DNA of 56,878 nucleotides from a virus (taxonomy: Duplodnaviria; Caudoviricetes), in IMG/VR virus record IMGVR_UViG_3300029981_000015, positions 1 to 56,878 of that record; one strand, 5' to 3'. This document shows positions 25,501 through 48,201 of this stretch, one piece after another; the first letter of the stretch is position 1; each line of letters starts with the position of its first letter. The notes under the pieces are model-generated. The model ran no database searches, had not been told where the DNA came from, and worked only from the letters and a program-made list of their open reading frames with translations. The translations under genes were made by a program, and so were the position numbers.

Positions 25501-28500
25501 TTTTAAACTCTACAGAACTTTCTACCGCATTTAAAACTTCTTTATTATCATAAGTCTCATTTATAGTATCTGGTAGATCTGGTTTTTGATCGACAATAAT
25601 AGAATCCTGATTTAATTGGTTTATAAGTCTGTCTATATCTGAAACTTCATCCACTACAGATTCATCATCACTACTAATATCAGTGCTTACAACAGATCCT
25701 TTTTCATCCTTAACCTCACTTGCAATAGTATCAGCCTGGATAGGAGGAGTAACTTTTTCTGGCCCAGTAGGACTTTCAGTATTAACTGGAGGAGTAACTT
25801 CAGTAACAGGTTTAGGAATCTGAGACTCTTCATAAGGACTCACTGGAGGAACTTCTTGGGTGAAAGTATCTTGTGGTTTTATATTATCAATAGATGGAGT
25901 TATTATATCAGAACTACTATGGTATTCTCCAGTTGGCTCGGGAACGACATTCCCTTCTAATTTAATGTCATCTACTATTTGCTTTGTATTTTCAGAGTCT
26001 ATTTCCTTTTTTCTACTATCCCTATACGAATCTAAAAGTTTATCAACGAATATATCATGATGTTTTGAATCCATCGTTTTTGATCCAGTATATCCAACTT
26101 TCTTATTGGTAAGCAACTTGGACATTGTACTTTCGTATTTGCCAGATATATCAGATATGTGAGAAAGTGCTAATGTTTGAATAGCATTTTTATCCATACT
26201 AGGCAGATTCAAAGAATCAATTTGCTTGGACAATTCATCAAATGAAACATTATCTTTTTCTGATCTGTCTATTATACCATAGTTTGCTAACTCATTATGA
26301 GCAAGAATAGCGGCCTCTTGTTTCTTCTTAGATAATTCGTAATTTATTATTTTGTTCTTTCTAACTGCATGTTCATTTTTAGAATCATTCTGTATGTTTA
26401 TATCCTTAAGTGATTCAAAATTAGATAATGCATCAAATAGAGCTACTGGGGATACAAGTGGGACAACATCTGGTTTTACATAGTCAGCATAACGATCTGC
26501 CATTTCAGATATAGGAGCATAATCATTTTTCTGCTTATTATAAGATGTTAGTAATTCATTTTTTACATCGTCAAATTGTTTAGCAGAATTATCATGGTCA
26601 ATAATAAGAGAAGTAAGAAGTTTATGATTCTCAGAACCAACTCCGCCGGCCCTATTTGCATAACCCATCACACTCTTGTCCTTATATACGGATAATGTAT
26701 TTTTTGCTAACTTTAATTCATTATTAATATCTTCTGGATCTATACCTACTGGAGGATTTTTTGCTAGTTTTTCTAGGTATTTAAGAGTAGCATTTTCCTT
26801 TCCATTATTAGAGGCATCTATATATGAGCTAGTTTTTTTAATCCTATCGTGCATTTGCATATCACGAAGTACTCCAGCGTTTATTACACTATTTGTCATA
26901 TCACTTGACATGCCATCAGACAAATGAATCATGGCATTATTATGTAATGCGTCTGGTTGATATCTAGAATCATTACTTATTCCAGAAACAGCAATGGGAG
27001 CAGATGGTTCGCTCTCTATAGTACTCGAAAAAGACGATGTAAGCGTCTCTGATGGACTTATTTGAGTTGGAGGTACTGCAGTGTCACTTGTAGGTTTATT
27101 TTGCTCTGTAGTAGTTTTATTTTTATCGTACTGAGCCATTAACTCATTATATACGTCATTAAATTTTGCATTTTCGGGAATGGCTTCTTTTGATATATAG
27201 TCCTTCTCTCCACTAAGGTTTACACCCAAAGCACTTCCATTGGCTGATTCTCCAGTTACTATCTGCATCCCTTTTTCAGGGGATCGTACAATAGGAATCA
27301 TACCATCAACAGAAAGGCCGCTAAGAGCAGTCCTTACTCTATTTTCTAAAGCATTTTTTTCTATATCTGGATTAACAGTTTTTGTTTTCTTATATGAATC
27401 TAATTCGTCTTTTAAATGTTGAGAAGTCATTGTAAACGTTCTCTTGATTTCATCATCATTTAATTCTACTCTTTTCCCATCTACAGTAGTACCGAATGTT
27501 TTGTCTTCTCCAGTTTTTGGATGAACGTAAACAGCCCTACCATCATTCGTAACAGATAAAGATACGTCTCCATTGGAATCAGTAGCTCTTTTAAACATTG
27601 CGGATCTAGCGGCATATGATGCATGAGCAAATGGTACTGTTGCAAGAGAGAACATTAATCCAGTTTCTAAACCAGATCTAAATGTATCCATCCATCCTTC
27701 AGCATCTGTATGTTTGCCTATAATTGCCTCATTTAATAAATTTTGAGCAACTCCAATCCCTTCCATTGTAGCAACACTATGAAGAGCACCTTTCCCAGCA
27801 GTTGTTGCAAATGACTTTATCGCACCAGGCATTTGATCTGCGAATGTTTTAAATACTCCTTTTCCAGCCTCAGAAACTACTTCTGGGTTTTTTGAAATAA
27901 AATTAAATACAGACTCTTGAACTGCTTTTAGTGGAGTCTTCTTTATTATACCACCTAACCCACTTGATAATTTTCCAAGAGGCAATGAATATATTAAGGC
28001 AGTACCTATTCCTAATGCGCTCTTCGTATCATCGCTAATTGGTTTCCCTGTCTCTTTTTCATAATTGTTTGCAAGATTTAATGCATCTGCATATCCAGTA
28101 CCAACGAAAGACGCAGTTACTCCAGCCCCAACTACTTCTGGTTGGCCAGATAATATACCTCCAATCGTAACTGCGGCTAGGGGAACAATTCCTCCTGCTT
28201 TAGCTTGCCATGTATCAGGAAGTTGACTTTCTGCTTTAGAAACATTAGTAAGATGCTCTACTGTACTAGCCTTGCTCTGTTTAGCACCTTCTGAATATAT
28301 ATCAGATAGGGTCTTATTCTCTTTATCTCCCAGGAACGTTGGAATTGCATTTCCTTCTGGATCGGTTAATAATCCTACTCTAGCATTTGCGGCAGCGGAT
28401 GTCATTCTAATCCTGGATATATCAGATATAGTTGCAACAAATTTATCTGGTATTGTCTCAGTGCCTATAGCAATACCTCTTAATGCCTGTCCTAATCCCT

Positions 28501-33944: not shown

Positions 33945-34997
33945 TTATATCATTGAATGTCTATATTTTGTTTCTATAAATGGAAGAACAAACATCTTCC
34001 CACTATTGTTTTGAAATGAGTAATCACTTATTAGATACTTTCCTCTCATTCTGTCTGCAAATTTACCAGGAACTTGGATTGTAGTCTCTATTGGATCTAA
34101 AGACGACCATGGAACATTAACCCCAACATCTACTTTAGCTACACATATAAGTTTTTTTGAATCAGTAGTATATCCATAATCTTCTGGAAGAAATATATAT
34201 CCTATTACCCACCCAGAATATATCTCATAACCAACAACATATGCACTAGGACCATTTGGGACGTTTACATATATTATCGGTCTAACTCTAGTCTGATTTG
34301 ATGCTTGTTTATTTATCCATCCAGTAGATGTATATGCAGACGATATATCTCTTTCGGAAGAGGTTAGGTATATCAAATTTCTATCTAGCCCCAATAACGA
34401 AGAATTTGACATGATAGCATTCATATCTCCTAACGTTGGAAGTTTACCTGAATTACCACTTGATATATAATTTCTACATAAATTAGCTGCTATAGCATTA
34501 GATCCTAGTACAGTAGATATATACAATGTATTAAGATATGCATATCCAATCTCGCCTCTAGTGGTTCCTATTAATGTGGGAACAACTGGTGTTGATACAG
34601 TTTCTGATTCAGTTGTTGTATTCCTAGGAATAGCAAATTTGTATGAATCCTCTCGTATATCTATAGATGAAGTTTCTATAGAAAGGCTATTTTGAGTTAA
34701 CGTATAGAACTTATGTAGTTGAACCATTAAAGAAATATTATCCCCAGAATATTCGACATTATCAAATGTTTTTGTAAGTGGGTAATTTTCATTAACTACT
34801 AATCTAAAAAATGATCTATCAGGATATGTAGTTGAAGATAATTTATTATATATAATATTTGAATTATGTAATAGCATATCCCCATTGGCGTCTATAGAGT
34901 AGTACTTATCTTTAAAGTCTAGATACCAAGATGGTTTTGATGATAAGAATGACATAAAAGACTGAGTAATCTCAGAGTAATTTAAAGTATTTAACAT
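33945..34997 (-). CDS. Muzzle (tail stabilisation) protein C-terminal part with inserted DUF1566-like domain
   Basis: Starts TLNYSEITQSFMSF and has KTFDNVEY, REDSYKFAIPR and DRMRGKYL motifs typical of crAss tail-stabilisation C-termini. TAATG overlap with the upstream ORF. Confidence 0.7.
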   Translation of the reverse strand: MLNTLNYSEITQSFMSFLSSKPSWYLDFKDKYYSIDANGDMLLHNSNIIYNKLSSTTYPDRSFFRLVVNENYPLTKTFDNVEYSGDNISLMVQLHKFYTLTQNSLSIETSSIDIREDSYKFAIPRNTTTESETVSTPVVPTLIGTTRGEIGYAYLNTLYISTVLGSNAIAANLCRNYISSGNSGKLPTLGDMNAIMSNSSLLGLDRNLIYLTSSERDISSAYTSTGWINKQASNQTRVRPIIYVNVPNGPSAYVVGYEIYSGWVIGYIFLPEDYGYTTDSKKLICVAKVDVGVNVPWSSLDPIETTIQVPGKFADRMRGKYLISDYSFQNNSGKMFVLPFIETKYRHSMI

Positions 34998-37900
34998 TAT
35001 CTTATATTGTCGACCCCTGTAAGTCCATTTAAAGTTATTATCATCTCATTATACTTTTTGTCAAATATCATAGGAATTTTATTTGAAATATTAGACTTAT
35101 TACTATTAAGTACGGTTTGTATTCCTTTTGCTTTAGATAATGGAGTTATAGAAGAACCATAAATACATATTTCAGCTCTTTCTATATCCATCCAATATAA
35201 TCCAGACTCAGAATCAGAAATCCCACATATCATATCTTTTTTCATTCCATTTGATGTTGATATGTAATCAAACCTACTTAATACACCACCAGACCCTAAA
35301 GTCAATGTGCTTATATTATTATCTTTTATTAACGCTCTTTCATTTACAGATAATACTCCAAATGAATTCTTTTGCCAAAAAAATAGCTTATTATCAAATT
35401 TTCTTATACCTGTAATTTCGCCATATTGGGTATCTACATCTATATAATTAGCAACTTGAAATTTAGACCAACTATCGTATATTTCGTCATTAGTTTTTGC
35501 CCCAGAATACCATACTCTACAATCGAATATTTTATTATCTTCAGTTACTAATAGTTTTGATTCAAAACCAATACCAGTCATATCAGCCGAATATGCTGAA
35601 TTATATGAATACTGTGGAAGCTGTTGAGTAATTTTCCATTCACTCCCTTGGCTTGCTCCAGGAGAATAGACTCCAGGTTCTCTTTGTATTGCAAAATTAT
35701 TATCAGACGCGATATAGGATTTAGAGTTAACTAAATGTAAGTTTATTGATGATTCAACAGGTATTAAGGCTCCTATATGTTTTACTTGATTTTCTATCAT
35801 AGGGTGTCTACCTTTTGTATCAGATCCATAACTATCACAATAAGGGTCAGTAGCCATAACAAGTGTATAGTCAAAAAGACCTATGAATGTGTCTCCACCA
35901 AATACTAGTTTTTCTATACTAGCCCCAGTATTGTCGAATGATACTCCAGTTGATATATATTCAGTAAATTGTCTATCTACTAATGATGAACCTCCATATA
36001 TATAGTCATTCATCACCTTCAAGTTAACAATGAATGTACTTAGCGCAGAAGACCCTATTCGGTCTAACGACTTATATCCATCATAAAGAGCACCGGAAGT
36101 ATATTTTTTTCTAGTTTGGTTTATGTCAGTAATTGTTGGAAACTGTTCTGAAACTTCTAAATTAAGGATAATAGCGCTCCCATGAGGACCGCCAACCTTT
36201 GTCATTCCACTAGGACCAGTAATAGTGTCATTTTGGCTAGGTTCTCCCTCATTACCAGTAGTAAGGGGTTTAGCCCAATTAAGATACTGTGATCCACCAG
36301 AACTGACATATTGAGCACCAGAAATCTTTTCTATTGGAAGGCCAGACGCAATATCACCTGAATATTCAAATGACTTAATCTTTTTAGTCAATAGAGTAGA
36401 GGCGGTAGATTTATTGATATTTAATCCAGAATACGTAAATGCAGTATAATCAAGTAAACTATTACTATTTTGGTATACTAATGATATGGTGTCAGAAGTA
36501 TTTAATTTAGTACCAGAGTACCTATTAAAATATTTAAATGTCATTCCACTAACTCCTGCGTCATTGGCATCATCAATAGTTATTAGGGCCTTATCGTGTG
36601 ATGTATTTGTAATATCATATACAAATCCATTCTTAAAACAATATGTGGATCCGCTAACATACCTTAGAACCCCTCCTATTGATAAAAATGCTCTTTTAAA
36701 TGGTTCATTAAAATAACCAATAGTTGGATATTTAATATCAGTTCTAGTGGCATCTACATTTTGTAAGTATTGCGTAGCAGAACTGGAGTTGGATACTAGT
36801 CTATAATTAGCGCCAACTAAGCCCATACTCATAAATACCGAATGATCATTTATGGTAATTCCAGTGGTGTATAATCTTTTGTTTATATCAGCTCCAAAAT
36901 ACATCGCAGATGGATAATATTTATGAGATGAATCATCAACTAAATAGAACTGTAACCTATTATGATCAGGATGTCCAAAATAGGAACTACCTGTAACATT
37001 TATTCCCATGCCAACAACAGGAGGAGTGGATACTGGATATATTATATCAACTATATCTGCATCAATAGCCCCAGATACTTTCCTTAATTGTTCAGTAAAA
37101 TCTACCCCATAATAAGACGTTTCTGGATTTATAAATAAAACGTCGCTCTTGTTATAGAAATATGGAGATATTGCATGATCAGTATAATTAGGTAATATTC
37201 TACCCAGATCACTGTTAACATAATATCTGTTATCATCAAAATCATGCCAATCTTCTATCCAAGCATCTGGTAAATTTGTACTAACAGATGGAGTGTGTAA
37301 CTTTTTCTGCGATCTACCAATACCAGTAATAGATAACGCATACCCCATTGATAGTACTGGATGAGGACGAAGTGTATTCACAAGTCCACCTGCAATTATA
37401 TTGGCTACATTGCCATCATGGTCTTGTTGATATTCCGCTCTATAAGTACCAGTCTTCTGTATTGCGCCTTGAGCATATATAGTCTTATTGTTTATATCTC
37501 TTTTTGCTCTTACTATTTCTACCTTTTTTATATCGCTAGGTAAATTTCTAAGTACAAATTTAACTCCAAGCGGTTTTACCAATAGCTCTTGATCGTTTAA
37601 AAAAGTATTAGAATATACAGTAGAATTTGATTCTGCAGGGGTTTCAAATATACTAGAGTTCCAACTAGATGATTCTATATATCCAGCTGGGAATCTTATA
37701 TCGGCTATCCATTTAGCAGGAGATTTTCTTCCTTTTGCATCATAGAATACACATGCAAATCTATATATCTCATCTCTTTGGTATGATGTTAAGTTGTTAG
37801 ACAAATATGGATTAGAATAATTTAAAAATCCATTATGAATAGGTATATTTAAATCGGTTAAATTAATATCTGTTGTTACGCCAGAACTATCAACTGTAGT

Positions 37901-40330
37901 TAATTTAGATATACTACGTTTTTTATCTCCTATCCTAGCAGTCCTTTGATCTATATACTTATCGCCATCAGAGGCCCAGGCACCATTAGTATTTTTTTTA
38001 TTATAATAATCTCCATAAGACTCTATAAAGTATGTATTAGCAAACTTATAATCTATATTTAACCCAGTTCCACCTAAATTACCATATCTATCATATATAT
38101 ATAGTAAATCAGAATATCTATCTTCACTATAAATTTCTTTATGTATACAATCATGTGTCTCTGGAACTAAATTTAAAGTATCAACAGATAATGACAATGT
38201 TCCTCCAGCCGAATCATATAATAAAGCGGTCTTACTAGAATTAAACTGATATGATCTAGTATCGTATTTAGATATTGGAATATCCCATGTATCTTCAGTT
38301 GTATTTGCAGCAAATAGTATGTTATCTTTACTTTCTATATATGTAGGCTTAAAAACATTTCCACCTATAAGATTAAACTCTGCTTGAGTTAACTCGCCAA
38401 GAGCACTAGTGCCACCATCTTCTACAAATACCTTATTGTTAAATACAGATGTAGTTATATCAGTTTCTTTTACTATAGTTATTGTCGGTACATCAGAATA
38501 ATTATAATAGTATAAAGATATTAATTTTAATTTTGTAAACTGGCTCCCTGTTGGTATGTCTATAGACACTTTAACAGATTTACCAGTTGGTTTTCCATAT
38601 ATCTCTCCTAATCCAGTACCAAGATAACTAATACTATAATCAGACTGTTCGCTCTCTGTCAAATGGACTACTGGACTAGATGGACTTAATTCAGTTTCTC
38701 CTCCAGATGGACTATATAGTTGATAGAAATATTGTATTAATCCAGCATTTAATCGTCCAGCCCCTATGGAAGTAATAGATGGCGCAGGAAGACTAGAAGA
38801 TGGAACTATATCAAACATAGTTTCATTTTCTATTAATGCATTTTTAGAGTCATTACTTTCTGCAATATTTATAACCCTAGTAAAATTAGACCCATCTGCC
38901 CAGTATACTTTAATATTATCAAAATCTTCATATCTACCAACTATACTTATTGGTGCGTCTTCTGGAATATCAAAGTCTACACCATTTGGGTTGACTACAT
39001 TTTTAAATATTGGTGTAGTATTATTAGTAAATGTGACTCTATATATTTTAAATGATTTTTCAATATTATCTGAGAATTCATAATATATATATAAATTATC
39101 AGCATCTACATATGATGCAGTAACAGTGGTGTCATATACTCCATTTGTGGACTGAATAAACACTTGTCTGTTTTGACCAGCAGGTATTAAATGAGATGGG
39201 GCATTTACATTTATCTTTCCATCTAGAGCCTTTGTAAAACTTAATATTTCAACCTCTCTGTTAAATATTATATCAGTATAATTACCATTAAAGTATAATG
39301 TAGTATTATTAACAAACGTCATAGATTTCACCCCATTATACTTTCCAGAAGTAGAGTTAAATATAACTCCAGTAACATTTCTAGTTGTGTTTAAAGGAGT
39401 TTCAAGAGTTATTTTTATTGTATTTGCAACAGAACCAGATGATATACTAAGTACATTCGAAGTGAACGCTAACTGTTCTGGGACTATGTCATAGTGCCAT
39501 GTAACTATGTCTGGCTCAGTAACTAGAGATGGACCTGAATCAAGTCCAGTTAACTCATATCTAAAATACTGAGTAGCTCCCTTATATCTTATAGTGAGAG
39601 GATCTGCATTTGGATCCCAATTTTCACCCCCATTTTCATCACATGGTATTCCATTGTTTTTAAATTCAAATGAAAGAACTTCAATACTAAGCACACTAAG
39701 CGTTGTATTGAACGTCTTAGTTAAATCTATTACTAATGTATCTAATGTGGCGTTAGTAGTATATGTAGGGGTATCTGGACCAATAATCGGGCTTAATTCA
39801 TCTGTCGTACTATCATTATAGGTAACTCGTATACTGATAGTCATATTCCTAGGAATAAGATCACTAAACCCACAAATAACTCTTTCTGGAGATTCGTTAT
39901 TTACATGAACCGTATCCACGTGAAAATAATTAGGAGTTAAATCTATAGGCGATGGAGTAACTCTAGAATCCTCTACATAAACTGATTGCTGTGGTATATG
40001 TGGTATAGATATAGTTGCTGGATCATTATCATCTATATACTGATACGACAAGGTACCCACTACGACTTTTGGAAATTTAGTAAATACAACGCCAATATCT
40101 CTAATTGTAGATGTTGCTATGATCTCTTCTCCAGCAGAAAATATACTCTGAGTGTTAAGTAACTCAGTAGAACCTTCTATGTTGGTTATAGAACCAGTAG
40201 TAGCATTGTTATTGGTTACCGTTCTGATATTCTCAGCATATCTATATTGAGTACTTTTTAATAGACTCTTATCGGTATCTAGGTTCATTCCAGCACCAAA
40301 TGTATTTATTTGAGATTTATTAGTACCCAT
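34997..40330 (-). CDS. Muzzle / tail stabilisation protein, N-terminal part
   Basis: INTFGAGMNLD...YRYAENIR start, KVYWADG, SYQRDEIYRFACVFY, FGGDTFI and DVDTQYGEIT beta-propeller-like motifs. ORF open from 40360; MGTNK at 40330 is the likely start. Confidence 0.8.
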   Translation of the reverse strand: MGTNKSQINTFGAGMNLDTDKSLLKSTQYRYAENIRTVTNNNATTGSITNIEGSTELLNTQSIFSAGEEIIATSTIRDIGVVFTKFPKVVVGTLSYQYIDDNDPATISIPHIPQQSVYVEDSRVTPSPIDLTPNYFHVDTVHVNNESPERVICGFSDLIPRNMTISIRVTYNDSTTDELSPIIGPDTPTYTTNATLDTLVIDLTKTFNTTLSVLSIEVLSFEFKNNGIPCDENGGENWDPNADPLTIRYKGATQYFRYELTGLDSGPSLVTEPDIVTWHYDIVPEQLAFTSNVLSISSGSVANTIKITLETPLNTTRNVTGVIFNSTSGKYNGVKSMTFVNNTTLYFNGNYTDIIFNREVEILSFTKALDGKINVNAPSHLIPAGQNRQVFIQSTNGVYDTTVTASYVDADNLYIYYEFSDNIEKSFKIYRVTFTNNTTPIFKNVVNPNGVDFDIPEDAPISIVGRYEDFDNIKVYWADGSNFTRVINIAESNDSKNALIENETMFDIVPSSSLPAPSITSIGAGRLNAGLIQYFYQLYSPSGGETELSPSSPVVHLTESEQSDYSISYLGTGLGEIYGKPTGKSVKVSIDIPTGSQFTKLKLISLYYYNYSDVPTITIVKETDITTSVFNNKVFVEDGGTSALGELTQAEFNLIGGNVFKPTYIESKDNILFAANTTEDTWDIPISKYDTRSYQFNSSKTALLYDSAGGTLSLSVDTLNLVPETHDCIHKEIYSEDRYSDLLYIYDRYGNLGGTGLNIDYKFANTYFIESYGDYYNKKNTNGAWASDGDKYIDQRTARIGDKKRSISKLTTVDSSGVTTDINLTDLNIPIHNGFLNYSNPYLSNNLTSYQRDEIYRFACVFYDAKGRKSPAKWIADIRFPAGYIESSSWNSSIFETPAESNSTVYSNTFLNDQELLVKPLGVKFVLRNLPSDIKKVEIVRAKRDINNKTIYAQGAIQKTGTYRAEYQQDHDGNVANIIAGGLVNTLRPHPVLSMGYALSITGIGRSQKKLHTPSVSTNLPDAWIEDWHDFDDNRYYVNSDLGRILPNYTDHAISPYFYNKSDVLFINPETSYYGVDFTEQLRKVSGAIDADIVDIIYPVSTPPVVGMGINVTGSSYFGHPDHNRLQFYLVDDSSHKYYPSAMYFGADINKRLYTTGITINDHSVFMSMGLVGANYRLVSNSSSATQYLQNVDATRTDIKYPTIGYFNEPFKRAFLSIGGVLRYVSGSTYCFKNGFVYDITNTSHDKALITIDDANDAGVSGMTFKYFNRYSGTKLNTSDTISLVYQNSNSLLDYTAFTYSGLNINKSTASTLLTKKIKSFEYSGDIASGLPIEKISGAQYVSSGGSQYLNWAKPLTTGNEGEPSQNDTITGPSGMTKVGGPHGSAIILNLEVSEQFPTITDINQTRKKYTSGALYDGYKSLDRIGSSALSTFIVNLKVMNDYIYGGSSLVDRQFTEYISTGVSFDNTGASIEKLVFGGDTFIGLFDYTLVMATDPYCDSYGSDTKGRHPMIENQVKHIGALIPVESSINLHLVNSKSYIASDNNFAIQREPGVYSPGASQGSEWKITQQLPQYSYNSAYSADMTGIGFESKLLVTEDNKIFDCRVWYSGAKTNDEIYDSWSKFQVANYIDVDTQYGEITGIRKFDNKLFFWQKNSFGVLSVNERALIKDNNISTLTLGSGGVLSRFDYISTSNGMKKDMICGISDSESGLYWMDIERAEICIYGSSITPLSKAKGIQTVLNSNKSNISNKIPMIFDKKYNEMIITLNGLTGVDNIR

Positions 40331-41090
40331 TGTTATTAGATTTGATGTTTTGTACTTCACCTATCGTATCATATGCATTGTTATTCGCATATACATCTGG
40401 CACTAATTTAATCCAATTATTCTTTATTGTTTCCATTTCATCAGAATTTGGCATCAGTGAGTCTCCATAGGCTTGTTTACAATAAAAATTCCACGAAGTT
40501 TTCATATCGTAGTATATTTGCCTTTGTAATCTTCCAGCCATATATTCTGGATATTTTAACTTTAAAGTAATATACCAATATATAGCTTCTATGTAAGACA
40601 TCATATCTGGAATCATTGGGTACCCATTTTCGTCAGTATAAATTGCATCATAACTTAATTTAAGATATCCATCAGGTATATTAGTCATAATATAACCTGG
40701 CTTTATAGAATATTTTAAATCCTGCGGTTTTCTACCAATACCCATGTTTGTTGTATCATTATTTTGAATATCCTTATCGGACCAAACACTAAAAGAGCCA
40801 GTGGCTATCGTCATTGGCATCCATCCTCCAGAACCCGAGTTAGACCACGCTACACTGTTTAATCTATGAATATCAGTTGGAAGTGCAACCTGATGTCCTA
40901 CTATCTTGAGAATAGGAGTTCCTGTAGATCCTGATACCTTCCTTTTTAATTGTTTAACAGAACCTATCTTCTCAACGGCCTCCGAGCACCATTCCTTCAT
41001 ATCAGAAATCCTTATGGCTTCTTCCCTTATGTCTAGATCGGCTAAAACTTTTGCGATCACTTGGTCGCATGAAATCATTTTATATACCAT
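40320..41090 (-). CDS. Tail ring (tubular) protein
   Basis: 256 aa with DENGYPMIPD...EAIYWYI motif. Directly upstream of the muzzle gene, as in crAss-like gene order. Confidence 0.7.
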   Translation of the reverse strand: MVYKMISCDQVIAKVLADLDIREEAIRISDMKEWCSEAVEKIGSVKQLKRKVSGSTGTPILKIVGHQVALPTDIHRLNSVAWSNSGSGGWMPMTIATGSFSVWSDKDIQNNDTTNMGIGRKPQDLKYSIKPGYIMTNIPDGYLKLSYDAIYTDENGYPMIPDMMSYIEAIYWYITLKLKYPEYMAGRLQRQIYYDMKTSWNFYCKQAYGDSLMPNSDEMETIKNNWIKLVPDVYANNNAYDTIGEVQNIKSNNNGY

Positions 41091-44089: not shown

Positions 44090-44773
44090 TTATGGATATT
44101 TTGGATTAAGTGTTAAACTAAAACAAATATTACTACCTGTAGATATTGAAGGTGTACTTATAATATTAATATTATCATTATTGTTTTTTAATAACTTATT
44201 AGATACAGTACATGATAAACTAGAATCAGAATCATACACTTTAACAAAACCTTGTGGACGAATCCAATTAACAATATCATTATTATTTTTATGTGTTGAA
44301 AATACTAACATAGCATTTTTTCTAGTATATACAACAGAATTATTACCATTACCTGTAGAACTTCCTTTTATTACAAAACCTAATTGTGGAGTAGTAATAT
44401 TTACATTTCTGTATGAACATATAGTTATTCTATTTTCAGCACTTTCTTGAAATGTAAAATTATAGGAAGTTAATTCAGAAGATGCAGGTTTCCAATAAAC
44501 TCTTAATCTATGTCCTAAATAATCATATCCTGTAAACATAAACCACTCACTAGGTTGAGTACAAAATGTAGTACTATTTATAGTATGTACAAAAGCAATT
44601 AATAAATCTCCATCTATAGTACCATTAGGTTTATTACATGTAGTTGATAAGGATAATAAATTATAAGTTGATTCAACACCTATAAATTTAATACTATTAT
44701 TATCTCCTCTATAAGGTTTCTTCTTTAATAACTGTGCATTATAATACTGTCTATTCATAATTAACTCCCCCAA
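44090..44773 (-). CDS. Tail-fibre-associated beta-rich protein (possible receptor-binding tip)
   Basis: DGDLLIAFV...PSEW...VYWKPASSE..SYNFTF pattern seen in phage fibre accessory domains. Overlaps the fibre stop. Confidence 0.5.
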   Translation of the reverse strand: MGELIMNRQYYNAQLLKKKPYRGDNNSIKFIGVESTYNLLSLSTTCNKPNGTIDGDLLIAFVHTINSTTFCTQPSEWFMFTGYDYLGHRLRVYWKPASSELTSYNFTFQESAENRITICSYRNVNITTPQLGFVIKGSSTGNGNNSVVYTRKNAMLVFSTHKNNNDIVNWIRPQGFVKVYDSDSSLSCTVSNKLLKNNNDNINIISTPSISTGSNICFSLTLNPKYP

Positions 44774-47700
44774 AAAACATATATTTGATTAGTACTACGA
44801 ATTTCACAATATAAATAATTAATTTGTGCAGGTATATAATCAGTTTGTAAATCCAACGCTATCCAATTAACAGTATATCCTGTAAACATTACAGTGGCAA
44901 TTGTTCCACCTGTGAGTATTAATCTAAAAGGTTTTTTAATAATAGGATTGGATATAGTAAATGCTGAATTAGTTCCAAGAGTTTTAGTAAAATCTTCACC
45001 ACTAGACAAATCTATTACAAATGCAGAAGGAACAATTTCACGAACTGGGACATTATAAACATCTAATAAACCTAATGCCGAACCATTAAATTGAGTTGCA
45101 TTAACTGTTCCATCTGTGTTTATATTCCCACTATCATCAAATTTAATTAATTTAGATGTACCGTTTGCTGATTTAAAATTTAAACCACTTGATAAAGTAT
45201 CTATAGTATAACCCCAAGAAACACCTGGAATTCCTCCTAAATATAATTTTGAATCATTAAGATATGAAGCTGCAACGATAAAATTATTAGCATAAACTGT
45301 TGATGCAAATGTTGCTGAACCTGATGCGCTGACATTAAAATTGCTACCAAGAATACTGATTGGAGTTACTCCTCCGTATGTCTCGATATACATATAAGGT
45401 ACTCCTGAGTTGTTTTTCCAACCAAGAGATCCAGAAGTTCCGCTCCCGAATTGTTTCCCTATCGAATATGCTATATCATCGCTAGCTGTTAATGTAGGGT
45501 CGTAATTATCTATTCTATTGCCTCTTATCCTTCCATCCACCCATATACTCCCACTTTGAGTGGTTGCAGGATTGTTTTGGATATACTTAGAATCTAAAGA
45601 TACTCCTGCAATAGTTGGGGTGTTGGAGAACTCTGCATCTGTAGCCCACAATTTACCCAATCGACTTGCACTTGAACCTATTGTTTGTGGTGTTGATTGA
45701 TTAACTAATACTGCACCTGAAAGAGAATTAATATAACCTGATGGATTAGTTGAATTATATGGTATATAACCTAATGCAGTAGTTACCATTCCACTATTAA
45801 TTCCTGTTATCCAATTACCGTAATTACCTAAATTATTTGTAAATTGGGATAACTGAGTAGGTTTATTTAGTAATACTCCTATTCCAGATGTAGCATTCCA
45901 ATCTGTTTGAACTTGTGAAGATGGAATAGTCGGAAAATCAGTTATTTGTGATTTAGTTATAGTTATACCTGTACTTTTATTCCACGCAGTAAATATTGGA
46001 TCAGTCTCAGTAAATGATGTCAAATAATTTCCTACTGGTTGGTATACACCAGTATGTAAATGATCACCATAAGCTGATAATACATGTGTAGTACCAAACC
46101 CAGGAAATGACACTTTATCATTAAATATATTCCAGTCAATACTAGTTACATACCCAGAATCGGTAGTGTTAGCAACTCCTAGTTTAGTTTTTATACTTAA
46201 AGTTGTTTCATCACCAGTATTAGTATTTGAAAGATTAGAGGCAGTAAGTGTAGAAACAAAATTTGCAGCACCAAAATGACCTATTGTAAACCATATATTA
46301 CCATTATTAAAACCATTTGTAGCAGATAATTTATAAGATCCATCTACATTATCTATACCGGCAGACCATTCAGTCATACCAGTATAAAGATAATGAGTAT
46401 ATGATGACCCTACAGACGAACTATTATTTATTTCAACTCCACCATCAAATTTACCTTTCCCATTAATCCATAAACTTCCATCTTGGGCTGATACACTTTG
46501 ATTTAGTATAAAATCATTTGTATTGTTATTTGATGCAGACCCAAAAGTTCTATACGCTAATACATCCCTGCCTATCAATAATCCCAAGTTATCAGGGGTA
46601 ATAGATACTATGCCAGTTTGGCTATTTACTGATACTACATCATCAGAGTTATCTGATTTCTCAGGTATCCCATTAGAATTATAAATCAACCAATCTCCAG
46701 GTTTAAAAGATAGCCCAAATCTAGTTCCAGTTCCAATAACAGTATACACATTACTAACTTTAGTTAGATCTGGAGATGATAGGGAAGGTATATTACTATT
46801 TACGTCCCAGGTACTGATATATTTTAATAATGTAGATGGTAAATATTGTAGAGCCACCTTTCCTCCGGAATCTAGTGGAGTATATCCATTATTAATCCCT
46901 TTATCTGATAATAGTTGATAAGGACTTAAATCCTGATCATCAGAATGTGATAAATGTATTTTAGCTATCTCAGTATCTAATACAAGACTTTTACCTCCTT
47001 CTTTTACTACTAACCCAGATAGATCTTGATCATCACTGTGAGGGGCATGTAAATTTGACTTCTCTAAATCAGTTATATAATTTTCATCGTCAGTCAACGT
47101 TAATGCAAATTCTGTATAATTATGAGTAGCTACTGTGCCTAGTCCTAGAGCTGTTATAAGCCCTTTTGCGACACCTTTATCCTCTTTTGTGTCAGTTATA
47201 CCAGTAACGAATAATTCTGTCGCATATCCAGTTAAAGAAGGCATTACTGGCTTATTCTTTATATAGTCTAATTTGTTTATATTTGTCTGACTATAATCAG
47301 ATTGTATTTGACTAGTATACTCTGGTAATCCATCAATTATTGTAGCATATATTCTTTTATTATTGAGTGGCTTTATATGTGTTGAATCTATTAAATCTTC
47401 AGAATAAAATACAGCCGTTTCGCCATTATTGAATGCAGCAACGGCTCCATTAGTATTTGTAAAGTCACTACCAATTAATGTCCCATCATTATATTTTGTG
47501 CATGCCCAGTTTTGTTTCAACCAAACTTGATTTCCAATAGTAACTGAATTATATGTATTCCCATTTAGATCTGTTATATCACCAGTATTTAATCCATTAA
47601 TCTTTACAAGTCTAACCGAAACTCCATCGTGCTTATTCATGTCTATGAAACCAAGATCTCTATCATCCGACATCATTATTAGATTAGAAAATGTATCTCC

Positions 47701-48201
47701 GGTAGCAGTAGTAGATGCAAAATAACTTCTAGTGAACAACTGCATGAATCCGTTATTTAAAGTCGCTGATGCAGATTTAGTTCCAGCTCCCAAAACAGAT
47801 AGTTTTAAAGAATTCGTATCATTGCTTCTATTCCCGGACCATGCATCAGATCTAGTGTCTTTTAATTTACCGGCTTGTTGGTATCCACAAAAATTATATA
47901 ACTCTAATAGGTCTTCATAAGTAGGAACTCTCCATCCTATTGGTGGGAATAATGGATTTGATATTGCATAGTAATTATATAATCTTCCAAATCTAATGGA
48001 ATTATTAATTATCTCAGAGTCAAATTCTTCCCATAGTGTTTCTCCATCTTTTCCTGGCAATCCATTTTGGCCTCCTATAGCAACGTCTATATTTAAATCT
48101 ATTACTTGGGTATCAAGATCAATAATAAAATCAGTAGTTTGTACTGTTACTGGGATTATTATATCTTCATATACCGGCGATACTATTAATTCTATATCCA
48201 T
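44761..48201 (-). CDS. Mosaic tail fibre protein with N-terminal FISUMP-like domain
   Basis: 1146 aa with a short collagen-like GQNGLPGKDG, FISUMP motifs, and fibre repeats (HSDDQDLS twice, QSDY/QTDWN, VVSVNSQTG, ETDPIF, ALGYIPYN). Confidence 0.75.
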   Translation of the reverse strand: MDIELIVSPVYEDIIIPVTVQTTDFIIDLDTQVIDLNIDVAIGGQNGLPGKDGETLWEEFDSEIINNSIRFGRLYNYYAISNPLFPPIGWRVPTYEDLLELYNFCGYQQAGKLKDTRSDAWSGNRSNDTNSLKLSVLGAGTKSASATLNNGFMQLFTRSYFASTTATGDTFSNLIMMSDDRDLGFIDMNKHDGVSVRLVKINGLNTGDITDLNGNTYNSVTIGNQVWLKQNWACTKYNDGTLIGSDFTNTNGAVAAFNNGETAVFYSEDLIDSTHIKPLNNKRIYATIIDGLPEYTSQIQSDYSQTNINKLDYIKNKPVMPSLTGYATELFVTGITDTKEDKGVAKGLITALGLGTVATHNYTEFALTLTDDENYITDLEKSNLHAPHSDDQDLSGLVVKEGGKSLVLDTEIAKIHLSHSDDQDLSPYQLLSDKGINNGYTPLDSGGKVALQYLPSTLLKYISTWDVNSNIPSLSSPDLTKVSNVYTVIGTGTRFGLSFKPGDWLIYNSNGIPEKSDNSDDVVSVNSQTGIVSITPDNLGLLIGRDVLAYRTFGSASNNNTNDFILNQSVSAQDGSLWINGKGKFDGGVEINNSSSVGSSYTHYLYTGMTEWSAGIDNVDGSYKLSATNGFNNGNIWFTIGHFGAANFVSTLTASNLSNTNTGDETTLSIKTKLGVANTTDSGYVTSIDWNIFNDKVSFPGFGTTHVLSAYGDHLHTGVYQPVGNYLTSFTETDPIFTAWNKSTGITITKSQITDFPTIPSSQVQTDWNATSGIGVLLNKPTQLSQFTNNLGNYGNWITGINSGMVTTALGYIPYNSTNPSGYINSLSGAVLVNQSTPQTIGSSASRLGKLWATDAEFSNTPTIAGVSLDSKYIQNNPATTQSGSIWVDGRIRGNRIDNYDPTLTASDDIAYSIGKQFGSGTSGSLGWKNNSGVPYMYIETYGGVTPISILGSNFNVSASGSATFASTVYANNFIVAASYLNDSKLYLGGIPGVSWGYTIDTLSSGLNFKSANGTSKLIKFDDSGNINTDGTVNATQFNGSALGLLDVYNVPVREIVPSAFVIDLSSGEDFTKTLGTNSAFTISNPIIKKPFRLILTGGTIATVMFTGYTVNWIALDLQTDYIPAQINYLYCEIRSTNQIYVFWGS

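Follow-up and report, generated by a model that had tools for sequence, protein, structure and literature searches.

Can a phage tail protein carry, in one of its loops, a lectin-fold domain whose two halves are encoded in the reverse of their usual order, and is it the reversal that allows the domain to sit there? The question is raised by P0001, an open reading frame (ORF) of 350 amino acids (aa) in a 56,878-base IMG/VR virus record (IMGVR_UViG_3300029981_000015, estimated to be 57% complete), the whole of which was analysed and is called the window here. The gene content of the record is that of a crAss-like phage, including a ring protein (PF24228), a muzzle ORF (PF25731) and giant ORFs of 4459 and 2029 aa, and P0001 encodes the C-terminal piece of the muzzle, a tail protein. 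An original prediction, made from the sequence without database searches, had proposed that a circularly permuted DUF1566-like domain of C-type-lectin fold is inserted into this piece. Our analysis makes it very likely that the insert is indeed a natural circular permutant of the DUF1566/Lcl_C family displayed in a muzzle loop, where it would serve as a recognition module. Three kinds of relative recur below: P0003 (locus L081), a muzzle C-terminal ORF with the same permuted order, the P0004 type (loci L001, L002 and L082) with the canonical order, and L083, which has no insert. The parts of P0001 are as follows.

33945..34997, minus strand: ORF P0001, 350 aa, the separately encoded, insert-bearing C-terminal muzzle piece
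34623..34997, minus strand: N-flank, residues 1-125, propeller-side muzzle strands ending in FAIPR, conserved in all relatives
34575..34622, minus strand: N-linker, residues 126-141, NTTTESETVSTPVVPT, with a predicted local distance difference test score (pLDDT) below 50 in the model
34269..34574, minus strand: block B, residues 142-243, which holds the helices and C-terminal strands (canonically second), ending RVRPIIY
34107..34268, minus strand: block A, residues 244-297, consisting of an 11-aa connector and, after it, the N-terminal beta-strand block (canonically first), ending VPW
34056..34106, minus strand: C-linker, residues 298-314, SSLDPIETTIQVPGKFA, with a ...PG.FA stub common to P0003, P0004 and the insert-less L083
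33945..34055, minus strand: C-flank, residues 315-350 and the stop codon, DRMRGKY...YRHSMI, the conserved muzzle C-terminus, with invariant columns in an alignment of eight relatives

The motifs FAIPR, ending at residue 125, and DRMRGKY, starting at residue 315, are separated by 189 aa (window 34056-34622), close to the roughly 185 aa first estimated. The linkers at either end, of 16 and 17 aa, are rich in Thr, Ser, Glu and Pro, much as the T/E-rich linkers had been described; all of the motifs originally picked out are present in the order given, and the span 34098-34577 first assigned to the domain corresponds to residues 141-300. Related loci were collected with an alignment query, which yielded 84 (80 viral contigs and 4 metagenome contigs); a single-protein query against the viral contigs had found no related loci. 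Both flanking motifs are contained in 80 of the 84, L031-L034 being without the pair and left out of the count. Spacing between the motifs falls into two classes, 7-22 aa in 74 of the 80 relatives and 188-216 aa in the remaining six. In GenBank crAss-like phages (tblastn, 12 records) the match is limited to residues 4-126. The homologue search returned no longer protein (614-2000 aa) with the insert, so no unsplit insert-bearing muzzle was seen there, which is weak evidence. Judged by these alignments the 189-aa stretch is a genuine insertion.

To which family does it belong? Searched by phmmer against 1.84 billion representative proteins, the insert gave 36 matches at E<=1e-3. Two are muzzle C-terminal ORFs (P0003 and P0004), and PF07603 (Lcl_C, once named DUF1566) is present at E<=0.01 in 32 of the 34 others, the exceptions being P0041 and P0042. 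A profile built from the alignment matches the solved C-terminal domain (CTD) of Legionella Lcl, 8q4e, at E 1.1e-18, and among ESM Atlas leads scoring 0.88 one of four clusters is 69% Lcl_C. A sequence search of the PDB with P0001 gave nothing at E<=1. Taken at the level of sequence, the insert is a DUF1566/Lcl_C-type domain, and the predicted identity as a member of a C-type-lectin-fold family stands.

The canonical order of this family, given in the original prediction as beta-strand block first and VRxVR last, can be seen directly in 8q4e, where the GG.V.YV...HGL.VA..D...W block comes first and the chain ends in VRAVRAF, and again in L001. The window's insert does not follow the colinear arrangement of beta-strand block, helices and VRxVR-ending strands; its N-terminal block (IG..Y.GG.I.YI..GY..LI.A..D..W) lies behind the VR.(V/I)R end. 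Local phmmer alignments already display this, as query positions ~120-175 align directly N-terminal of the stretch matching ~15-100 in nearly all targets. Five tandem-repeat proteins (P0012, P0015, P0030, P0034 and P0043) match the query colinearly across a repeat junction, for example query 19-178 against P0012 418-577.

The prediction had proposed a comparison of native and re-ordered sequence by hidden Markov model (HMM), expecting swapped partial hits and a better full hit after re-ordering. We ran this with a custom canonical HMM of 169 positions, built from 27 proteins of canonical order, none of them a muzzle insert. The native core (residues 142-297) matched in two swapped pieces totalling 86.6 bits, residues 143-241 on HMM 65-166 (66.3 bits) and residues 251-297 on HMM 13-58 (23.2 bits), and the computationally rotated core gave a single match to HMM 13-166 of 96.9 bits, as had been expected. 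P0003 behaved in the same way, with 141.3 bits in two pieces as the native sequence and 149.2 bits as one match when rotated. The canonical L001 insert, used as control, did the opposite, scoring 150.3 bits in one piece and 133.3 bits in two swapped pieces once rotated. Independently, the A5 profile agrees with the HMM when run as a six-frame search: model positions 181-294 fall at 34251-34577 and, downstream of this on the minus strand, positions 130-178 fall at 34101-34250, and the record of L001 gives one colinear match to positions 78-299. By both kinds of profile search, then, the domain order is circularly permuted, B-A.

Structure models were made with AlphaFold for the 189-aa window insert and the 192-residue L001 insert, not the whole 350-aa ORF, and element numbers follow insert numbering. 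A mixed alignment meant for folding the whole ORF was rejected, having only 2-5 rows over block A and DUF1566 proteins force-aligned onto the muzzle flank. The window model reached a predicted template modelling score (pTM) of 0.74 for a 189-aa chain that includes 30 disordered linker residues, with pLDDT 80-92 over most of both blocks. It begins with helices at 28-42, 44-51 and 64-71, continues with four strands and closes with strands at 133-162, the block A strands at 133-135, 138-143 and 155-162 having pLDDT 84-92. The L001 model (pLDDT 87.1, pTM 0.81) has its strands at 27-50 first, then helices at 78-92, 94-100 and 115-122, and then four strands. As modelled, these are the same elements in rotated order. 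Foldseek searches with the window model were weak, with a best E of ~1 against the PDB and 0.04 against BFVD, where the alignments were partial and one was to a cr10_1 'DUF1566 domain-containing protein' (E 0.58). The model of the canonical sister does find structure matches, a contrast to be expected of a sequential aligner faced with a permutant. Taken by itself the window model is weak evidence for a lectin fold; for the canonical sister's domain the fold is shown by its model, and the permuted form probably folds compactly.

Where did the permutation arise? The P0004 type has the same ORF architecture as P0001 and holds its domain in the same loop in A-B order, colinear with the canonical model, and both share linker stubs, NTKSG together with an aromatic residue (N side) and I.PG.FADRMRGKY (C side). 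Identities per block between the three muzzle inserts are as follows.

P0003 versus P0004: block A 54%, block B 49%
P0001 versus P0003: block A 39%, block B 51%
P0001 versus P0004: block A 38%, block B 42%

P0003 and P0004, which have opposite orders, are thus as similar in each block as the two permuted forms are to one another. Identities between muzzle inserts exceed those of the non-muzzle matches (28-40%), save for P0020, at 46% over a short 68-residue match. In the flanks, identity to the window is 71% for L081, 69% for L083 and 64% for L001, and a flank-only tree (160 columns, modest resolution) places the window, L081, L083 and L001 types in one clade with support 92/97. Because the sister has the A-B form in this very loop, mounted on the same stubs, we conclude from these comparisons that the permutation probably occurred within this phage lineage, at or near the muzzle site, either on the spot or through exchange between closely related phages. 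The most likely route would be that the insert was duplicated and the outer halves were then lost; A-B-A or A-B-A-B intermediates were absent from the 9 near-length matches, the 36 representative matches and the 84 loci. Among close relatives the loop now occurs in four states: no insert, DUF1566 A-B, DUF1566 B-A, and Fib_succ_major.

The fourth state is a parallel from a different family. In L003 and L004 a Fib_succ_major (PF09603) domain occupies the same muzzle loop (E 3.1e-27, 216 aa between the motifs), matching profile positions 41-187 and then 1-29. The swap is of the same kind, with the N-terminal ~40 positions lying behind the rest, and was found in 6 of 6 Fib_succ_major domains from four crAss-like records including that of the window; three other complete records had none of these domains. 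The swapped domains are the following.

47458..48012 of the window, minus strand: Fib_succ_major domain in a 1146-aa ORF (44761-48201), profile 43-187 then 1-29
L003:3376-4023 (also L004): swapped Fib_succ_major in the muzzle loop
G001:C1:14227-14808: swapped Fib_succ_major
G002:C1:26353-26940 and 27336-27947: swapped Fib_succ_major, two domains
G003:C1:78471-79073: swapped Fib_succ_major

The 1146-aa ORF is probably a tail-fibre protein. A 13.7-bit Lcl_C match overlaps the window's Fib_succ_major domain, consistent with the two families being related.

Position on the virion can be approached through gp44 of crAss001 (7QOK/7QOL/8CKB), a homologue both of the insert flanks and of the 1787-aa ORF upstream, and a hexamer located at the tail's end. 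In gp44 (7qok_A, 1371 aa) the alignment with the muzzle C-terminus profile extends to residue 1293, where the TFDNVEY motif lies, and counting on from there the insertion site would be at about residues 1320-1335. In its account of gp44, the crAss001 structure paper describes a hexamer in which IG2 and the distal 'crass' domain comprise residues 318-1021, with insertions reported in the crass and IG2 regions (PMC10172136). The site lies outside this range and so would map to the propeller/ring-joining part, not the distal tip. The prediction had placed the domain at the tail tip, which is imprecise.

In the arrangement we favour, a DUF1566/Lcl_C domain of ~155 aa would be displayed in a muzzle surface loop that joins two conserved strands (FAIPR and DRMRGKY), on its two flexible 16-17-aa Thr/Ser/Glu/Pro-rich linkers, with the old termini joined by the 11-aa connector and the new termini at the A/B junction, which has the conserved Trp on one side and the GTT...G.G..NT helix on the other. 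It would act as an accessory module binding glycans or the cell surface, probably as a monomer, and add to or change recognition of the host surface; six copies would be present per virion if the hexamer is conserved. Such a role is favoured because the nearest solved relatives are recognition modules and the site is a swap hot spot. Lcl is described as binding sulphated glycosaminoglycans, with a C-type-lectin-like CTD (PMC11162425), and Bd2740 as the C-type-lectin tip of an adhesive fibre (PMC10769870). As presented in these two accounts, the Lcl CTD and Bd2740 are without the classical Ca2+/carbohydrate motifs of C-type lectins (EPN/QPD, WND) and their disulfides (PMC11162425, PMC10769870). 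We infer an adhesin function for the insert on these analogies; the permutation itself would at most alter the side of the domain that is turned outward from the muzzle.

Several points weigh against this reading. The Pfam model PF07603 (gathering score 34.9 bits) found no match to P0001 or to the insert alone at E<=10, so that family membership rests on transitive and custom-profile evidence. A six-frame PF07603 search of the record likewise gave nothing at the insert, its only product being the weak 13.7-bit match in the Fib_succ_major domain of the other ORF, and P0003 and P0004, at 15.2 and 21.8 bits, also fall below the cut-off. Part of this has a simple explanation: Pfam DUF1566 is reported to span only Lcl residues 314-399, with strands S1-S4 lying N-terminal of it (PMC11162425), and since these N-terminal strands are left out of the model, Pfam barely detects block A. 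P0001 is also without the Trp of the family D-W-x-L-P-S motif, having GK-LPT instead, and its binding properties may differ. The modelled packing of block A onto block B depends on a pTM of 0.74 and high pLDDT, and since the alignment behind the window model was drawn from tandem-repeat proteins, the model may be biased. As to history, A-B is taken as the ancestral direction from the family norm only, and in the flank tree the insert-less L083 nests inside the insert-bearing clade, pairing with the permuted L081 at moderate support (91/85). Neither L083:2501-3046 nor L084:411-956 contains the domain, and the 22-aa loop of each keeps both linker stubs (NIKSGIFTGSKENEIPAGRFA), which suggests recent domain loss or cassette exchange in L083; because L083 nests where it does, the history of the site would include one or the other.

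What, then, is the permutation for? The original prediction held that it creates new adjacent termini and so enables an adhesin to be plugged into a loop. The permuted form does sit in the loop on two linkers, and the unrelated Fib_succ_major insert at this site in L003/L004 is likewise swapped; however, the canonical-order domain of the same lineage occupies the same loop on homologous stubs in L001, L002 and L082, which makes permutation unnecessary for insertion. In the canonical model, moreover, the two domain ends (residues ~12 and ~172 of 192) fall in alignment on the terminal residues of the Lcl CTD. We consider it improbable that the rearrangement was needed for insertion, and this part of the prediction is not upheld. 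An adaptive role is conceivable, though we hold it only tentatively: moving the tether to the A/B junction would re-orient the domain and free the canonical C-terminal end for ligand contact. That end is reported as the diversified, exposed part in DUF1566/DUF823/Fib_succ_major targets of diversity-generating retroelements (DGRs) (PMC5758913), the permuted form has been retained by two lineages that have diverged from each other (the window and L081/P0003, 39-51% block identity), and the Fib_succ_major domains are swapped in all six cases. Against it stand the persistence of the canonical form at the same site and the small number of lineages, two being insufficient to demonstrate selection. 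In a wider and equally speculative version, the clade would systematically use B-A permutants of DUF1566/Fib_succ_major lectin-fold recognition domains in its tail proteins, with the C-terminal face that DGRs diversify turned outward and with the muzzle loop keeping both the ancestral A-B form (L001, L002, L082) and the derived B-A form (window, L081). If this is true, the loop would offer a natural pair of a rare kind, from before and after a permutation by duplication, in a hot spot of host recognition.

Other explanations concern the insert itself. It may be a structural decoration, for instance one that stabilises the muzzle-ring junction or contacts between subunits through the oligomerising tendency of the fold. 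Trimers are formed by the CTDs of both Lcl and Bd2740, and the authors of the Lcl study raise the possibility that DUF1566 promotes trimer formation (PMC11162425, PMC10769870); the site, by homology to gp44, is in the propeller/ring-joining part and not in the distal crass domain. Yet a hot spot of swapping is what one expects of host-range modules rather than structural parts, L083 does without any insert although it is a close relative, and linkers of this length and flexibility speak against a fixed role, and so we regard a structural role as rather unlikely. Could the two blocks instead be leftovers of a decayed tandem pair, the C-half of one domain and the N-half of the next, which do not fold together? 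The colinear matches across the repeat junctions of tandem DUF1566 proteins would fit, and joint folding of the permuted blocks depends on model confidence, but both blocks have been conserved in the window and P0003, which keep residues invariant in the family, the model scores given above hold for both, and B followed by A makes exactly one full set of domain elements, so this seems very improbable. Least probable, if only slightly so, is that the domain is a DGR target with a hypervariable binding site in this phage. As a property of the family the DGR link made in the prediction holds, since DUF1566 and Fib_succ_major are treated as one class of DGR target with a common variable-region structure, comprising 14% (51) of surveyed targets (PMC5758913). 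The 57%-complete record itself, however, has no RVT_1 (reverse transcriptase) match, and no direct repeat of at least 40 nt, of the template-repeat/variable-region kind, touches 33945-34997. The reading we retain is that of a permuted recognition module in the muzzle loop.

Compared with known systems, what is new is the circularly permuted variant; the domain family and the phage protein were already known. The Lcl CTD of Legionella pneumophila (8Q4E; PF07603) has its halves in canonical order and ends a trimeric collagen-like stalk, whereas the halves in the window are swapped and the domain sits in the loop of a hexameric phage tail protein; P0001 also goes undetected by the Pfam model and is without the Trp of DW.LPS. 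The Bd2740 CTD (8OKS), Bordetella phage Mtd (1YU0) and Treponema TvpA (2Y3C) are terminal, canonical-order tips of C-type-lectin fold, several of them trimeric, and the C-terminal domain of the Bacteroides ovatus fimbrial protein BACOVA_04982 (4EPS) is likewise terminal and in canonical order. Mtd and TvpA are DGR-diversified binders. In contrast to all of these tips, the window domain is internal, permuted and probably monomeric. Muzzle gp44 of crAss001 is a single gene with no lectin-fold domain at ~1320-1335; the window has two ORFs and an insert near the C-terminus, outside crass/IG2. Within the literature available to our search, no paper was found treating a circularly permuted DUF1566, and the terms circular permutation and C-type lectin fold co-occurred in a single paper, in unrelated passages.

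The Crassvirales rank with the most abundant phages of the gut, and little is known of the parts with which they bind receptors. In the C-terminal loop of the muzzle, a lectin-fold cassette that can be exchanged would be a candidate host-range determinant. Variation in muzzle length through insertions has been described, and the cassette site lies outside the regions in which the crAss001 structure paper, in its account of these insertions, reported it (PMC10172136). The occurrence of canonical and permuted versions in one lineage and at one site, at 49-54% identity per block, provides a clean natural test of the origin of a permutation and of its functional effect. Pfam and Foldseek both missed the permuted domain, and such modules are probably under-annotated in phage tail proteins.

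The insert is carried on a muzzle that is itself divided between two ORFs.

34997..40360, minus strand: main muzzle ORF, 1787 aa, C-terminal end NEMIITLNGLTGVDNIR before the stop codon; PF25731 crAss_MUZ, E 3.6e-207

P0001 residues 59-126 match PF25729 crAss_MUZ_C (E 9.8e-11, 42.4 bits against a cut-off of 27), and its first 126 residues correspond to about positions 1307-1443 of the 1511 in phrog_28748. Because of these two C-terminal matches, the last ~160 muzzle residues are read as having their own ORF in this phage. The ATG of P0001 overlaps the TAA stop of the 1787-aa ORF as ATAATG (window 34995-34999), and in unsplit relatives the reading frame is continuous through the equivalent of this start. 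The same two-ORF split is found in L001-L008 and L081-L084, a clade with support 94/94 in the flank tree, in place of the single polypeptide of crAss001 gp44; cr50_1-like phages (L009 onward) have the muzzle as one continuous ORF. The split point is apparently within a blade of the beta-propeller. The 1787-aa ORF is ~400 aa longer than gp44, and its crAss_MUZ match begins at residue 434, so that it has a long unassigned N-terminal extension. Directly downstream of P0001 (29922-33943) are ORFs of 644 and 694 aa with no Pfam match at E<=0.01; these may be cargo or tail proteins, and the 694-aa ORF is of low complexity, rich in Gly, Ala, Ser, Asn and Gln.

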